From IMG/VR virus record IMGVR_UViG_3300024038_000016: a DNA stretch of 64,000 nt. One strand, given 5' to 3'. This stretch comes from a virus. Positions 13,198 through 61,526 of this stretch are shown in pieces. How positions within the stretch are numbered: the first letter of the stretch is position 1; each line of letters begins with the position of its first letter. Made by a program: the position numbers and the translations under genes. Under the pieces are notes generated by a model. It worked only from the letters and a program-made list of their open reading frames with translations, was not told the origin of the DNA and ran no database searches.

Positions 13198-13785
13198 CTA
13201 AAACAGGCGCCCTTGGATCTTGCCTTGCAATCTCGCGCGTTCCTTGGCGATGGTCTTGTAGACCCAGATCACTGACACGTTGAACTCGCGCGCAAGCTGG
13301 ACGTGGTTGTTGCCGCGGAACTTCTCGAACATGCGGCGACCGCGCTCGTCGGATTCGTAGGTCACGCCGCGCGGGATGTAGATGCTCTGGCCGCCCCAAT
13401 GGCGACGGACATACTGCGAGAGGTTCGGACCGTGGGCCCGCGCGGCGACCTCGTCCAGCCCTTCGTGCATGAGATGGCGGATCAGTTCTCGGGCGAGATC
13501 CGCGAGCAACTCGGCATAGAGCCCGCCGGACTCCGAGAAAGTCGGATCGGCTCCTGCCGCCTCTGCCCCGAAGAGATCCGCGTTGGCACGTCCGGCTGAG
13601 GCGTGGCCTTCCTCCGGAACGTAGATAGGAAAGCCACTCCAATGCTCGCGCGCGTGCTCGGCTACCGAAAAGGCGATGGCCCCGGCGCGCTCAGGCGCGA
13701 GCCCCGTCTTCTCGATCTGGCGGCTCAGCTGCGCCACCAGGTCGGCGAGCAGTTCCGGGTAGGCGTCGGGAATGCGATCGGTCAT
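13198..13785 (-). CDS. mor: Mor/C-family late transcription activator with tandem N-terminal domains
   Basis: HWGGQSIYIP and F.GNNHVQLAREFNVSVIWVYKTI motifs. Confidence 0.88.
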   Translation of the reverse strand: MTDRIPDAYPELLADLVAQLSRQIEKTGLAPERAGAIAFSVAEHAREHWSGFPIYVPEEGHASAGRANADLFGAEAAGADPTFSESGGLYAELLADLARELIRHLMHEGLDEVAARAHGPNLSQYVRRHWGGQSIYIPRGVTYESDERGRRMFEKFRGNNHVQLAREFNVSVIWVYKTIAKERARLQGKIQGRLF

Positions 13786-50136: not shown

Positions 50137-51330
50137 TCATACCTCGCGCAGCAGGTCCAACTGGCGCGATGCCTCGGCCGCAAACCGCGCTGCGTGCTCT
50201 ATGCGCGCTCGGGCGATGTCCAGATAGCCCAGCGGCTGCCCGTGCTCGTCTTCGTCGCGCTCGATGCCGACAAAGCGGAAGCCTTCCAGCATGCAGGCCT
50301 TGCCCGTTGAGCCGGATCCCGTGTACGGGTCGAGCACAACGCCCCCGCGCGGCGTCACCAGGCGGACCAGATAGCGCATCAGGTCCGTGGGCTTCACCGT
50401 GGGGTGGTGGTTGCCCTGCGGAGGCGGTGCGTAGCCCTCATCGCGGCGCGTGATATGCCGGCCGGAGGTGTTGGAGACCATGCCGCCAGGCCTATGAGGG
50501 AGCGCTTCGCAGCCCTCGTTCCTGTCGTGTCGCCCGGCCTTGGCGCAGTAGAAGAAACGCGCCGCGCTGCCCGAACCCGAGTCAAAAGGCGTTCGGTCGC
50601 CGCCCAGGTAGTCGGAGCAGCCGGTGCCAATGCCGCCGCCATAACCGGTAACGCGAGTCTGCGGCACCGAGCCGCCGGCACCGTCGCTATCAGGGAAGCG
50701 CGCAAGCACCTCGTCGCTGCCGTCATGAATGAGGTTTGCCGGAAAGCGGCCAGACGGGTTGTAGCTGTTCTCGCGCGTTCCGGACCATTCACCATAGGCA
50801 TTGCTCGTACGGCTCGAAGCGAGCCCCACCACGCTCACGCACTTGGCCTCGTGGTCTGCTCCGGAAGGCACGCGGCAACCACCGATGTTGATGGCACCGG
50901 TCCCGAACTGCTCGACGTTGCTGGCGACTGAGCCAACGAGCGGCTTGCGCGCCATCGTGATCGGTTCAAGCGCCGGCTTTAGCGCCGTACCCCAGCCCTG
51001 CCAATCCCCGTCCAGGTTCTTGCTCTTCGGGAAGCCGGACCCATAGACCCACGCGATCATGTCGCGGATCTCGAAACCCGCGTCCTCGATTCGCACAGCC
51101 ATGCGGTGCTGAGTGCGCGTGCCAGCGAAGGCCAGCAGGTGGCCGCCCGGCTTGAGCACCCGCAGGCACTCGACCCACACCTCGACGCGAGGGACGTCGT
51201 AGTCCCACGCCTTGCCCATGAAGCGCAGCCCGTAAGGCGGGTCGGTGACAATCGCGTCGACCGAGGAATCCGCCATCGCCTTCAACAGGGTCAGACAGTC
51301 GCCGCGCAGCAGCTCATATCGCTCGATCAC
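50137..51330 (-). CDS. DNA methyltransferase, N6-A/N4-C beta class
   Basis: AIVTDPPY, HPTVKP..LM.YLV, VLDPYTGSGSTG. Confidence 0.93.
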   Translation of the reverse strand: MIERYELLRGDCLTLLKAMADSSVDAIVTDPPYGLRFMGKAWDYDVPRVEVWVECLRVLKPGGHLLAFAGTRTQHRMAVRIEDAGFEIRDMIAWVYGSGFPKSKNLDGDWQGWGTALKPALEPITMARKPLVGSVASNVEQFGTGAINIGGCRVPSGADHEAKCVSVVGLASSRTSNAYGEWSGTRENSYNPSGRFPANLIHDGSDEVLARFPDSDGAGGSVPQTRVTGYGGGIGTGCSDYLGGDRTPFDSGSGSAARFFYCAKAGRHDRNEGCEALPHRPGGMVSNTSGRHITRRDEGYAPPPQGNHHPTVKPTDLMRYLVRLVTPRGGVVLDPYTGSGSTGKACMLEGFRFVGIERDEDEHGQPLGYLDIARARIEHAARFAAEASRQLDLLREV

Positions 51331-54743: not shown

Positions 54744-54783
54744 TTTAGAGCGCTTGACTCTTGAAGGTTTAGTGTTCTAAATT
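54744..54783 (+). promoter_or_regulatory. OL-like operators and PL-like promoter
   Basis: TTTAGAGCGCTTGA (54744) and TTTAGTGTTCTAAA (54768), 24 bp apart; TTGACT-N18-TAAATT. Confidence 0.75.
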
Positions 54784-55905: not shown

Positions 55906-56336
55906 AGCTCCTCGCCGACGCATTACAGGCCGAAATGCAGATGCACGCGCACCGCCTTGAGCAACTGCGCAAGCACGCCGGCCAGCTGCACACCGCCGAA
56001 CAACTGCAGGAAGAACTGCGCCAGCTCGGCCTGCCCATCGAAGAGCTGCGCGCCCATTGGGACCAGTGGCCTGCGCACCCCTTCGAGTGCGCCAACGCCA
56101 GCGCCGGCTACGCCTACCGCGACCCCGGCAGCCTCGTGATCACGGTTGGCGTGTCGTCGCTGTATGCAGCGTCCGTCAAAGATGCGTTGCGCGCCCTCGG
56201 ATGGAACGAAGCCCCGCTCGCGCGGCAGGGCCGCCTGGCGTACTACCACTCGGGAGATCCGGAGACCCGCCTGCACCTCTGCATTCGCTTCCGCGAGGTC
56301 CGCATGCACGCCCTGCAGGTGGGGGAGTCCGCATGA
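55902..56336 (+). CDS. Hypothetical protein
   Basis: GGAG RBS; coupled. Confidence 0.65.
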   Translation: MKLLADALQAEMQMHAHRLEQLRKHAGQLHTAEQLQEELRQLGLPIEELRAHWDQWPAHPFECANASAGYAYRDPGSLVITVGVSSLYAASVKDALRALGWNEAPLARQGRLAYYHSGDPETRLHLCIRFREVRMHALQVGESA

Positions 56337-56542: not shown

Positions 56543-56646
56543 CGCCGCGCCTCGAAACCCTCTACGGCCTGATCGGCGCCGCGTTCCTCTGCTGGCTCGC
56601 CGTGGAGGCCTTCTACAAGCTCATCACCGAAGGCTTCGTCCTGTGA
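56539..56646 (+). CDS. Small TM peptide (35 aa)
   Basis: MTPRLETLYGLIGAAFLCWLAVEAFYKL; coupled on both sides. Confidence 0.5.
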   Translation: MTPRLETLYGLIGAAFLCWLAVEAFYKLITEGFVL

Positions 56647-57668
56647 CCCCAAAAGAACTGCTCGCGGCCATCAAGCCCGCCGCCAATGCCGCGGCCAAGC
56701 ATTCGCCGCTGCCTGTCCTCACGGACCTCTGCTTCTCCGAAGGCCGCGTCACGGGTGGCGACAACATCATCGAGCTGAGCCTGCCGGTGGAGCTGGACAT
56801 CAGCGGATGCGTGCCGGCGCAGCGCCTCACCAGCGCGCTGGCCGTCATGCCGCCCGACGCGGAGCTGCGCACCGACATCAAGGACGGCCGTTTGTCCCTG
56901 CGTGCGGGCGGCTCTCGCCACATGCTGCCGATTCGCCCGGTCAGCAATTATCCGTTTCAGGCCTTTGAGCCTGCGGGCGTTGCGGTGGACGTGGCCGCCC
57001 ATGCGCTGCGCCGCGTGGCCCCGGCGGTGAGCAAAGACCACTCGCGGCCCTTCATGACCGGCGTGCACGTCTTTGCCCGCGATAACGCGTTGCGCGTGGA
57101 AGCTTCGAATGCGGTGCTGATGCTGCGCTCCGACACGCAAGGCGTGGATGCGGACATCGACCTGATCCTGCCGTCGCACACCGTTGCCGCCCTGGACGAC
57201 GGGCAATGGCAGATCCGGCCAGGCACGCACACCGTTGAGCTCAAGAGCGGGAACGTGCGCATCGTCTCGCGCGTGATCGACGCCACCTATCCGGACACGG
57301 ACCGCATCTTCAACGGGCGCGAGAAACGGCCGATCGCCACCATCCCGCGCGAACCGCTGATCCGCGCCATCCGTGGCGCCGCCGTCGCTACCGCCGGCCA
57401 GAAGCAGCCCACGCTGCTGATCCAGTTTCGCCCGGGGCAAATCGAGTTCTCCAGCGCCGACGAGGCCGCCGAGAGTCGCGACGTACTCGAGTGCGATTGC
57501 ACCGTCACGCTGAACACCGAATTCCGCCCGCCGCAGCTTCTTGTCGTGCTCGACGCCCTGTCGGGTGACGACGTTCTCTGGTCGCAGCCCGAACCGGTCT
57601 GCTTCGCGCGCATTGAATCGGCCCAGCACAGCGACTTCGTTGCGCTGGTCGGCGCGCTCCGTAACTGA
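56643..57668 (+). CDS. dnaN: Divergent DNA polymerase III beta sliding clamp homolog
   Basis: 341 aa; ELLAAIK..PVLT.L, AVSKD.SRPFMTGV, SRVIDATYPDTDRIF, IPREPLIRAI. Confidence 0.85.
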   Translation: MTPKELLAAIKPAANAAAKHSPLPVLTDLCFSEGRVTGGDNIIELSLPVELDISGCVPAQRLTSALAVMPPDAELRTDIKDGRLSLRAGGSRHMLPIRPVSNYPFQAFEPAGVAVDVAAHALRRVAPAVSKDHSRPFMTGVHVFARDNALRVEASNAVLMLRSDTQGVDADIDLILPSHTVAALDDGQWQIRPGTHTVELKSGNVRIVSRVIDATYPDTDRIFNGREKRPIATIPREPLIRAIRGAAVATAGQKQPTLLIQFRPGQIEFSSADEAAESRDVLECDCTVTLNTEFRPPQLLVVLDALSGDDVLWSQPEPVCFARIESAQHSDFVALVGALRN

Positions 57669-57676
57669 GGCCCACC

Positions 57677-58093
57677 ATGACCCCGAATGAAACGCTCGCC
57701 GCCGCCATGGCTGGCAACAAGGCCCCGCTGGTCAAGGCGGAGTTGAAGCACATCAACAGCAACATCAAGCCCGAGACGATGGAGACCATGCCCCATCGCA
57801 CCGCGGAGGCCTACAGGCTTTCGGGTGGCCTGGTGTTCTGGAGCACACAGGGCTCGGCGCAATGCCGGCGCTGCTCCGGCGAGGGCGACGTGGTGCACGA
57901 ACACGACATCGTGACGTGCGGCGCCTGCCAAGGCTCCGGTCGCCACCAGGCGAGCGGACCCGACTTCATCACCGATGTGGACGGCAACCTGCTGGACATG
58001 CCGGCGTTGATGTACGTGGCGGACGCAGGCTACCCGCGCCGAACGCCGGCGGTTGAGACTCTGAAGCGCTGGCTCGGCGAGGTGACGGCATGA
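57677..58093 (+). CDS. Protein with DnaJ-type CxxCxGxG zinc finger
   Basis: CRRCSGEG..CGACQGSG. Confidence 0.65.
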   Translation: MTPNETLAAAMAGNKAPLVKAELKHINSNIKPETMETMPHRTAEAYRLSGGLVFWSTQGSAQCRRCSGEGDVVHEHDIVTCGACQGSGRHQASGPDFITDVDGNLLDMPALMYVADAGYPRRTPAVETLKRWLGEVTA

Positions 58094-58629
58094 GCTGGAT
58101 CCTCACCTACACGGGCAAGCACTTCGATTTCCGCGATATAGACCCGGATGTGGTCTGCATCCAAGACATCGCCCACGCACTCGGCAAGCTGTGCCGCTTC
58201 AACGGGCACTGCGCGCGCTTCCACAGCGTGGCCGAGCACAGCATCGCGGTTTGCGATCTGCTCCCCATTGAGTTCAAGCTCGAAGGCCTGCTGCACGACG
58301 CCGCCGAAGCCTACATCGGCGACTGCGTGCAGCCGTTGAAGATGCTGCTTGGCGACTACCGCGCGATCGAGCAGGGCGTCAATTGGGCGATCCGCACCCG
58401 GTTTGGCTTGCCGTCGAAGATGTCACCCGAGGTGAAGCACGCGGACCTCCGCGTATTGGCGACGGAGCGCATGAAGCTCATTCCGGACGACCCCACACCT
58501 TGGGCCATCCTGGAGGGCATTGCGCCGGCGGAAAGCCTACTCGTTGGCGTCCTCAATCCCGATGAAGCCGCGGCCCGATTCCTTGGTCGCTTCATTCATC
58601 TGACAGCCGACGGAGGGCGCGAGGCATGA
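58090..58629 (+). CDS. HD-domain phosphohydrolase (YfdR/YfbR-like)
   Basis: DIAHAL..RFNGH..SVAEHS..LLHDAAEAYIGD. Confidence 0.88.
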   Translation: MSWILTYTGKHFDFRDIDPDVVCIQDIAHALGKLCRFNGHCARFHSVAEHSIAVCDLLPIEFKLEGLLHDAAEAYIGDCVQPLKMLLGDYRAIEQGVNWAIRTRFGLPSKMSPEVKHADLRVLATERMKLIPDDPTPWAILEGIAPAESLLVGVLNPDEAAARFLGRFIHLTADGGREA

Positions 58630-58946
58630 GCGCCGCCCACTGTAACGACTGGCCCGAGCTGATCGACGACATGCACATGATCGGCCGCCCGCGAGTGCTT
58701 GCCCTGGCCTGCGAGCCGATCGAGGTCACGCCCGGCTACGTGCGCCTCCTGCTGCCGCAAGACCGCCGCGCCTTCCTCGCGTATGAGCACGAGCTGCGCG
58801 CCGTGCTCGAGCGCCACTTCGGTTGCGACGTCACGCTATCGATCGAGACGCCCGACGACGACATCTCAGTGCGCACCCGCACCGGCCGCCTGCTGATCGA
58901 TCGCCGGCCAGGCTGGACGGTTTCCACCCACCGGCTGCGGAGCTGA
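58626..58946 (+). CDS. Stand-alone Pol III tau C-terminal-like domain
   Basis: DWPELI..G..RVLAL..VRLLLP..L..VL.RHFG..V.LSIE pattern like the DnaX C-terminal core, aligned from memory. Confidence 0.6.
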   Translation: MSAAHCNDWPELIDDMHMIGRPRVLALACEPIEVTPGYVRLLLPQDRRAFLAYEHELRAVLERHFGCDVTLSIETPDDDISVRTRTGRLLIDRRPGWTVSTHRLRS

Positions 58947-59504: not shown

Positions 59505-61526
59505 ATGATCGGACACGACTACGGCGCCAGGCGGCTCGATTTGTTTCACGAGCTCGTGATCGACAACTTCGCCGGAGGCGGCGGGGCAAGCACCGGACTT
59601 GAAGCCGCACTCGGCCGACCGGTCGATATCGCAATCAATCACGACCCCGAAGCGCTCGCGATGCACGCAATGAACCACCCCCGCACGCAGCACATGCTGC
59701 AAAGCGTGTGGGACGTGGATCCAGTCGCCGTCACGGGCAACTGGCCCGTGGGCCTCGTATGGCTTTCTCCCGACTGCAAGCACTTCAGCAAGGCAAAGGG
59801 CGGGACGCCGGTATCGAAACACATCCGCGGCCTGGCGTGGGTGGGAATGCGCTGGGTCGCACTCACGCGCCCCCGTGTGCTCATGCTGGAAAACGTCGAG
59901 GAGTTCACCACATGGGGGCCGCTCGTGATCGACGAGGACGGGACGGCCAGGCCGGACCCGAAGCGAAAGGGCCGCACCTTCGAGAGCTTCGTGCGGCAGC
60001 TCCGCCAGCATGGCTATGCGGTCGAGTGGAAGGAGCGCCGTGCTTGCAACGCGGGCGCACCGACAATCCGCAAGCGCCTGTTCCTGATCGCTCGCCGCGA
60101 TGGTTTGCCGATCGTCTGGCCGGCGCCGACGCACGGTGCGCCAGACTCCAAGGATGTACGTATCGGACGCGCAAAACCCTGGCGAACCGCCGCCGAGTGC
60201 ATCGACTTCAGTCTGCCGGCGCAAAGCGTGTTCGGACGTCAGAAGCCACTCGCGGACAACACCTTGCGCCGTGTGGCGAAGGGGCTGTGGCGCCACGTCC
60301 TGACCAACCCGGAGCCATTCATCGTCGAGAAGGCGGCGCCGTTCGTTGCCAAGTACCGCGCGGACAGTGCGGGCAGCGCCATCGACGCTCCGATGCCGAC
60401 GGTCACCGCCAATAGCTTCGTCAAGCGCCCGGGCGGCTGCGCACCGCTCGCGGTGGCTGCGGCCAGCCTGGCTCCGTTCCTCACCGAGCACGCCAACGCC
60501 AGCAACCAACGAACGATGTCGGCGGACGAGCCGCTGCGGACGATCTGCGCCCAGGTGAAGGGTGGGCACTTCTCGCTCGTTGCTCCCGCGCTCGCGCCAC
60601 TCCGTGGCACATCAGGCTCGCATCTGGTCGGCCACGCCGTGGACCACCCGCTATCGACAGTCTCCGCGGGCGGCACCCACCACGCGCTCATGGCCGCGCA
60701 CCTCACGCACCTGACTCACCACGGCGAGCGCAGCGGGCATCCGTGCGATCAACCGATTCCGACCATCACGGCCGCCAACCGTGGCGAACAAGCACTGGTC
60801 GCGGCGCACATGGTCACCGTCGGGTACGGAGAGCGGCCGGGTCAGGAGGCGCGCACTCACGGCTGCAACGAACCCATGGGCACTGTCGTTGCGGGTGGCG
60901 TCAAGCGCGCCTTGGTGACCGCGTTCCTTGAGCAGGCGAATGGCGGCTTCTACGACGGCGACGGTCGTTCGGTCGCGGAGCCGGCCTCGACCATCACCGC
61001 AAGCGGCAGCCAGCAGCGTCTCGTCTCGGCCTACCTGGTGAAGTACTACAGCAGCGGCGGCCAGTGGCAAGACGTGGCCGAGCCCATGCACACACTGCCA
61101 ACCAAAGGCCGTATGGGGCTCGTGCAAACGGTCCAGGTCTCGGCCGGTTGCATCGCGCCCGAGCTGCTCGATAAGGCGCGCCAGTGCGCGTCACTCCTAC
61201 ACCGCTTCCTGCCGGAGCACTTCCCCGAGCCCGCGGACCTGGTGCTGGTCGGCGAGTACGTGCTGGTCGACATCACCCTGCGGATGCTCAAGGCGCCCGA
61301 GCTGTATCGCGCCCAGGGCTTCCCGCCCGAATACGTGATCGACGAGATCCCCGACCCCTCGCTGCTGTTCGTCAATGGCGTCCAGGTCGCGGACCCGCTG
61401 TCTGTCCCCCGCATCAAGTTGTCCGCGACCGCGCAAGTGCGCATGTGCGGCAACAGCGTCTCTCCGCCCGAGGCTGAAGCGCTCGCGCGGGCGAACTTTG
61501 CTCACGAAGAAAGGATGGTGGCATGA
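59505..61526 (+). CDS. C5-cytosine DNA methyltransferase with repeat-expanded variable region
   Basis: FAGGGG, SPDC, ENV, RKRLF, MCGNSV motifs. Confidence 0.92.
   Translation: MIGHDYGARRLDLFHELVIDNFAGGGGASTGLEAALGRPVDIAINHDPEALAMHAMNHPRTQHMLQSVWDVDPVAVTGNWPVGLVWLSPDCKHFSKAKGGTPVSKHIRGLAWVGMRWVALTRPRVLMLENVEEFTTWGPLVIDEDGTARPDPKRKGRTFESFVRQLRQHGYAVEWKERRACNAGAPTIRKRLFLIARRDGLPIVWPAPTHGAPDSKDVRIGRAKPWRTAAECIDFSLPAQSVFGRQKPLADNTLRRVAKGLWRHVLTNPEPFIVEKAAPFVAKYRADSAGSAIDAPMPTVTANSFVKRPGGCAPLAVAAASLAPFLTEHANASNQRTMSADEPLRTICAQVKGGHFSLVAPALAPLRGTSGSHLVGHAVDHPLSTVSAGGTHHALMAAHLTHLTHHGERSGHPCDQPIPTITAANRGEQALVAAHMVTVGYGERPGQEARTHGCNEPMGTVVAGGVKRALVTAFLEQANGGFYDGDGRSVAEPASTITASGSQQRLVSAYLVKYYSSGGQWQDVAEPMHTLPTKGRMGLVQTVQVSAGCIAPELLDKARQCASLLHRFLPEHFPEPADLVLVGEYVLVDITLRMLKAPELYRAQGFPPEYVIDEIPDPSLLFVNGVQVADPLSVPRIKLSATAQVRMCGNSVSPPEAEALARANFAHEERMVA

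Follow-up and report, generated by a model that had tools for sequence, protein, structure and literature searches.

The locus described here raises the question of what a beta-clamp homologue may do for a temperate phage once the pocket by which clamps hold their partners has been remodelled. The gene lies in a stretch of 64,000 nucleotides (the window; IMG/VR record IMGVR_UViG_3300024038_000016) on an 82,746-bp contig, in which a lambdoid prophage and a Mu-like prophage adjoin back to back. The initial annotation, made from the letters alone, had read it as a phage clamp with an altered pocket, and from this had proposed either a changed client specificity or a dominant-negative subunit.

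A clamp gene in the early operon of a prophage

The Mu-like prophage occupies positions 1-24000 and the lambdoid prophage, with its serine integrase, positions 25000-64000, each with methylase genes of its own. One flanking host gene, which clusters at 90% with a Niveibacterium protein, gives Rhodocyclaceae as the probable host family. The clamp gene is located in the early operon of the lambdoid prophage, away from any dnaA-dnaN-recF-gyrB cluster; this operon runs from a promoter-like site at 54754 to the serine integrase and also holds an HD nucleotidase, a C5 methylase and a DUF1643 gene, and the wider surroundings comprise terminase, HNH, CII-like, repressor, methylase and serine integrase genes. 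Judging by this arrangement, the clamp would be made early after prophage induction. A single RNA-library run shows even coverage of early, late and intergenic regions, at a depth of about 17-20, and the library may be DNA. The relevant features of the operon are:

54754..54783, + strand: sigma-70-like promoter match at the head of the early operon (consensus match only; 2 sites found, 0.6 expected)
56643..57668, + strand: full-length beta-clamp (DnaN) homologue, 341 aa, with a GTG start overlapping the upstream stop and a TGA end
57677..58093, + strand: next gene, CxxC protein of 138 aa with two CxxC motifs, no family
58090..58629, + strand: HD-type deoxynucleoside 5'-monophosphatase (phrog_318, E 1.7e-73)
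58626..58946, + strand: stand-alone tau (DnaX) domain V core homologue, 106 aa (tau C-terminal profile E 1.6e-6, positions 8-90 only)

The clamp reading frame shows no internal break over its 341 aa. The protein matches PHROG 947 (E 8.6e-41, aa 4-319 on profile positions 10-343 of 368) and lies above the cut-off for Pfam DNA_pol3_beta_2, while its score against the chromosomal DnaN equivalog TIGR00663 (61.7 bits) is below the curated cut-off of 137.65 and compares with 319-333 bits for DnaN of the host family. An assembly error is ruled out by identical DNA in six other contigs, with 0 differences across five of them and the same sequence in a 5.3-kb contig from a separate 2022 study. A C-terminal frameshift is also ruled out, as the pocket changes there stand in register (M362>G337, P363>A338, M364>L339, R365 kept). 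GC3 (0.85) is like that of the neighbouring genes, codon bias is normal, 76 of 104 core positions are still hydrophobic against a background of 0.44, and the pI of 5.7 compares with a range of 5.0-6.0 (mean 5.3) in host-family DnaN. Elsewhere in the window, one run also gave a second contig that leaves out 3 bases at position 56008, and further contigs show differences within the methylase gene (61072-61403). The samples, ant metagenomes for the most part, probably contain a related phage as well.

In the lambdoid part, tblastn with tau and a Walker A scan, with part of the ORFs profiled, found no polymerase, clamp loader or Walker A protein, and the only Walker A hit on the contig is the Mu B-like ATPase of the Mu-like prophage. 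Because neither polymerase nor loader was found, we infer that the phage uses the host replisome. The clamp operon has no recognisable recombinase or SSB gene, and defence-system profiles gave no match. The N6/N4 DNA methylase at 50137-51330 carries the clamp-binding motif QLDLL three residues from its end (50140-50166, - strand), a motif by which it is likely a client of the host clamp. In the Mu-like prophage, the Mor/C-like activator ends in QGRLF, a clamp-motif-like tail (13201-13215, - strand) that fits the published use of the host clamp by Mor/C proteins for transcription (PMC12867686).

Two further genes of the operon deserve mention. The CxxC protein begins with MTPNETLAA, which resembles the clamp start MTPKELLAA, and four relatives have a gene for 122-127 aa located 8-12 bp behind the clamp; as a conserved partner, however, the 138-aa protein was rejected, its homology with two readable counterparts being not significant (hhalign probability 1.4%). 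The tau-V-like protein lacks the C-terminal helices and tail of tau and has a different, basic C-terminus. In three of five host-family genomes, the sequence that it matches best is the PF12170 stretch of dnaX, and no homologue appeared in a search of 5.8 billion sequences. A similarity of its start to the Walker B region of tau (pairwise E 0.002) is probably chance, and its single-sequence model (pLDDT 52) gave an uninformative fold search. The presence in one operon of a clamp and a tau-V protein that both lack their usual polymerase contact is suggestive. A conserved clamp and tau-V module was rejected, with no tau-V homologue in the loci of nine relatives, several of which are short.

Fold, predicted ring and partner-binding pocket

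The AlphaFold2 model of the clamp has a mean pLDDT of 97.3, from an input alignment composed mostly of normal clamps, and places the C-terminal strand (aa 331-340) in its usual position at pLDDT 97. Model residues 1-341 align to residues 5-366 of solved DnaN chains (Z 34-35.5, rmsd 2.0-2.8 A), and this end-to-end alignment, with the model itself, bears out the full-length, three-domain clamp pattern originally proposed. Relative to chromosomal DnaN (E. coli 2POL/1MMI; TIGR00663; PF00712/PF02767/PF02768), the prophage protein is alike in its three-domain fold over the whole length, its predicted head-to-tail dimer, its acidic pI and its kept subsite-1 floor, but it is only 18-27% identical (22-27% to host-family DnaN), 25 aa shorter, changed in subsite 2, divider and DNA-facing residues, and encoded in a prophage operon rather than beside dnaA.

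A head-to-tail homodimer is predicted with a score of 0.57, against 0.00 for the best control, a result that may reflect memory of solved clamps; the mark applied is reached by 20 of 30 solved homodimers and by 1 of 23 monomers. The runs agree in at least 90% of contacts, with pLDDT of at least 90. The interface is composed of two sides:

56814..56930, + strand: domain I side of the predicted dimer interface, aa 58-96 (F106>H93, R103>G90, R105 kept)
57363..57485, + strand: domain III side of the predicted dimer interface, aa 241-281 (I272>V248, L273>A249, E301 kept)

In the predicted dimer H93 contacts A249; much of the clade has this very pair in place of F106 and L273, and F106>H and L273>A are also found in relatives with a normal pocket. 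By alignment, the dimer core is thus changed on both sides together across the clade, and in the model the prophage clamp still looks able to close a ring with itself.

Pocket residues were defined after PMC3716654 (18 positions, E. coli numbering). All 18 are invariant in 34 chromosomal DnaN proteins of the probable host family, and 4 of the 18 are identical in the prophage clamp. The changes fall in five stretches:

57045..57056, + strand: subsite-1 floor stretch, aa 135-138 (R152 kept as R135, L155>M138)
57096..57122, + strand: domain II pocket strand, aa 152-160 (T172, D173, G174, H175, R176 and L177 replaced by S155, N156, A157, V158, L159 and M160)
57291..57308, + strand: subsite-1 floor stretch, aa 217-222 (P242 and R246 kept, V247>I222)
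57522..57536, + strand: subsite-2 stretch, aa 294-298 (N320>R295, Y323>Q298)
57636..57665, + strand: C-terminal strand, aa 332-341 (V360>L335, M362>G337, P363>A338, M364>L339, R365 kept)

The two segments singled out at the outset are where they were said to be, with VEASNAVLM at the usual VATDGHRL site (aa 152-160, 57096-57122) and FVALVGALRN at the C-terminal (V/I)MPMR site (aa 332-341, 57636-57665, in register), and the reading of both as remodelled parts of the peptide pocket is right. What that description missed are the kept subsite-1 floor, the changed N320 and Y323, and the changed DNA-facing residues.

By alignment, the remodelling is uneven, with a conservatively kept hydrophobic floor and a divider and subsite 2 that are nearly gone. 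The floor positions (R152, L155, T172, L177, P242, R246, V247, V360) read R, M, S, M, P, R, I, L, with 3 identical and 8/8 similar residues against 57/106 similar in the protein's own background (p 0.01), although this floor may be kept for structural reasons only. The divider and subsite-2 positions (D173, G174, H175, R176, N320, Y323, M362, P363, M364, R365) read N, A, V, L, R, Q, G, A, L, R, with 1/10 identical and 3/10 similar. Eight clade relatives of similar overall divergence keep 70/80 of these residues against 1/10 here (Fisher p 1e-6, for relatives that are not independent). The case for loss of the divider and subsite 2 rests on these relatives, because the loss alone is not significant against the protein's own background (37/106 invariant non-pocket positions kept, p 0.16). 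The prophage clamp also ranks last among 150 relatives in pocket identity, with 6/23 identical residues.

By analogy with E. coli mutants, a loss of host-like peptide binding is well supported. In E. coli, P363A and likewise M364A impair delta binding, and a clamp without residues 362-366 loses delta binding and loading altogether (PMC2685083); P363S is inviable as sole clamp, and G174A alone is mild (PMC4045847). The prophage clamp carries both P363>A and G174>A, plus M362>G. The peptide Gln, on the other hand, bonds to the main-chain carbonyls of 362/363 (PMC3716654). Such carbonyls survive side-chain changes, and since the kept floor holds the Leu-Phe plug of delta, weak binding and loading are possible.

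The protein also differs at R24, R73, R80, Q149, Y153, R197, K198, R279 and R282, which we take to be DNA-facing positions of the E. coli clamp; they are nearly invariant in host-family DnaN and all changed here in the alignment, a part of these changes being common to the clade. Among them, the DNA-contact residues Q149 and Y153 become D132 and P136, beside the floor stretch aa 135-138. Other basic residues located on the helices (K11, R123, R124, R241 and R244) could stand in for the lost DNA contacts. A DNA-facing role has been described for the 148-152 loop (PMC4045847).

Relatives and recurrence of pocket erosion

A search of 1.84 billion representatives returned a nearest relative at 40% identity, and a second sister was found later. 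The prophage frame is full-length at only 39% identity to these sisters, P0010 and P0174, which are 78% identical to each other. A tree inferred from the columns outside the pocket unites the three (support 0.998) within a clade of short phage clamps, of which most have normal pockets. No relative close enough for dN/dS was found in viral, genome or metagenome scans, and 401 Rhodocyclaceae genomes gave no match outscoring chromosomal DnaN.

Pocket erosion proceeded in two steps, since both sisters keep M362-P363-M364 and have lost D173-R176 (including H175), N320 and Y323. Between P0010 and P0174, the most different six-residue window is E. coli 173-178 (6/6), followed by 147-152; the nominal p of 0.002 for 173-178 is overstated, as one small shift could give the whole run. 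Because a fixed new client predicts shared new residues, which the sisters lack, released or diversifying constraint is favoured, and the alignments suggest a pocket rim that has been released or is changing fast, rather than a single new specificity that has become fixed. The altered client specificity of the initial annotation is possible, though a single new client is the less fitting account.

The prophage clamp is extreme but not unique in this respect. At least 8 of the 10 divider and subsite-2 residues are kept in 77/154 relatives, and at most three of the ten in 9/154 proteins, with eight changes on the tree and with some of the nine being C-terminal misalignments. Similar erosion clearly recurs, by alignment about 7-8 times among the 154 relatives. 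As to gene neighbourhoods (loci L010:134-1692 and L128:3375-4918), normal-pocket relatives have the clamp gene directly 3' of ssb, near RecT, dUTPase and Dam genes; the P0174 clamp gene follows YqaJ, RNase T-like exonuclease and RdgC genes, and the sisters lie near integrases.

Clamp copies of this kind are a known but unstudied phage family, of which the present protein is an extreme case. It belongs with the full-length phage homologues (PHROG 947; dnaN of Ralstonia phage Cimandef), many of which also lack a polymerase and loader of their own and lie in an early or DNA-metabolism operon, and at least 177 viral structural matches were found. Most PHROG 947 members keep a near-normal pocket, and the C-terminal motif is retained in Cimandef. 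A 2011 catalogue of phage beta homologues comprises seven full-length and five short proteins, those without polymerase being assumed dispensable (PMC3201878). The five short, pocket-only mini-clamps of that catalogue are, like the protein described here, prophage early-operon derivatives of DnaN, but they keep the pocket and lose domain I and the ring interfaces, whereas the present protein has all three domains and a changed pocket. T4 gp45 and the RSL1/Ma-LMM01-type replicases share with it a phage-encoded clamp fold, yet those of T4 and RSL1 type are accompanied by a phage polymerase and a loader subunit (PMC3201878), neither of which was found on this contig. UL42-like non-ring factors that bind DNA directly have a high pI (the criterion of PMC3201878), and the pI of 5.7 speaks against this type. 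The nearest experimental counterparts are the E. coli beta-C clamp (362-366 deleted) and P363/G174 mutants, which are cleft-defective yet folded and dimeric and are changed at the same residues (PMC2685083, PMC3022782, PMC4045847); those mutants are engineered, while in the prophage clamp the C-terminal strand stays in register and the dimer core has diverged, so that mixed rings are not assured. In E. coli, mixed rings let even dead clamps rescue dnaN159(Ts) (PMC4045847). We found no study of pocket-altered phage clamps in the literature covered, which included a small part of the subscription journals.

Possible roles and what they would mean

The reading that we prefer, at about even confidence, is that of a still-selected, prophage-borne beta-clamp homologue which forms a self-pairing ring, has lost its hold on standard clients, is unlikely to be loaded onto DNA and is kept for a non-standard partner. 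The protein would be made early after induction and pair with itself into a ring. Standard QL[SD]LF clients would no longer dock, as neither the Gln subsite nor the divider persists and what is left is no more than a shallow greasy pit. Loading onto DNA is improbable because the host delta depends on that same cleft, the prophage lacks a loader and the DNA-facing positions have changed; this copy is probably not a working replication clamp. Most likely it would act off DNA, as an accessory protein with the shape of a clamp, using the residual pit or other surfaces of the ring to bind a non-standard partner. This partner would be encoded by the phage or be a host factor able to recognise the clamp shape, and the old pocket rim would be released from constraint or changing fast. 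A more elaborate version is decidedly unlikely in our view: an orthogonal clamp with a self-specific ring and a diversifying pocket rim, having a private phage partner or decoying a host toxin or sensor directed at clamps, and acting in concert with the tail-less tau domain V protein located three genes further on, the two being captured replisome parts without polymerase contacts.

The main rival, which we regard as doubtful, is a loadable clamp of narrowed or shifted specificity, whose ring the host loader opens via the kept floor and which recruits to phage DNA those clients that plug in by Leu-Phe or Leu-Leu without need of Gln, while excluding some host clients. The similarity of all eight floor positions, with R152, P242, R246 and R365 identical, argues for it, as do the binding of delta mainly by Leu73-Phe74, the predicted ring, and the DNA-metabolism setting of clamp relatives beside SSB, RecT, YqaJ, RdgC and dUTPase genes. 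It has to contend, however, with the impaired delta binding of E. coli P363A and M364A, the nine changed DNA-facing residues, new residues that are not common to the sisters, and the methylase, the one clamp-motif protein found in the lambdoid prophage, whose standard motif suits the host clamp. That the pocket is still host-like, making this an ordinary phage clamp or a client sponge in which the changes are tolerated, is very unlikely: the main-chain hydrogen bonds to the peptide Gln, the C-terminal strand modelled in place and the kept floor would allow it, but H175, N320, Y323, M362 and P363, each invariant in the 34 host-family clamps, have changed together, and pocket identity is the lowest among the relatives.

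We consider the dominant-negative subunit of the initial annotation, in which mixed rings with host DnaN would spoil host replication or clamp recycling, just as improbable as a host-like pocket. Interface positions R96, S104, R105, L108 and E301 are kept, and one-cleft heterodimers are impaired in unloading (PMC2685083), which makes a mild effect conceivable; yet in vitro such heterodimers are loaded and support Pol III just as wild type does, and in vivo they sustain viability (PMC2685083, PMC3022782), identity to host-family DnaN is low, the dimer core is changed on both sides, and the prophage itself needs the host replisome. Least probable of all is gene decay, a recent loss of function with pocket changes by neutral drift, which the initial annotation had named as an outcome that would undo its reading. 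A pocket identity of 4/18 is not significantly below the background of 37/106, the lineage is rare, with no close relative in the scans, and the M362-P363 loss seen in this protein only could be recent. Against this stand an intact frame with a coupled start, normal codon bias, a kept hydrophobic core and a confident fold, as well as an erosion that is older than the split from the sisters, which are 61% different and also intact.

The clamp pocket is among the most constrained bacterial surfaces and is an antibiotic target. A natural, folded clamp with a predicted ring and without the pocket offers a ready-made test of what a pocket-free clamp is able to do. If the pocket is merely released, the locus would simply illustrate drift among fast-evolving phage proteins of one family and be of modest weight; if there is a private partner, it would provide an orthogonal clamp-peptide pair. 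The finding also bears on why many temperate phages without a polymerase carry clamp genes, a matter that was put aside in 2011, the genes being regarded as probably dispensable baggage (PMC3201878).
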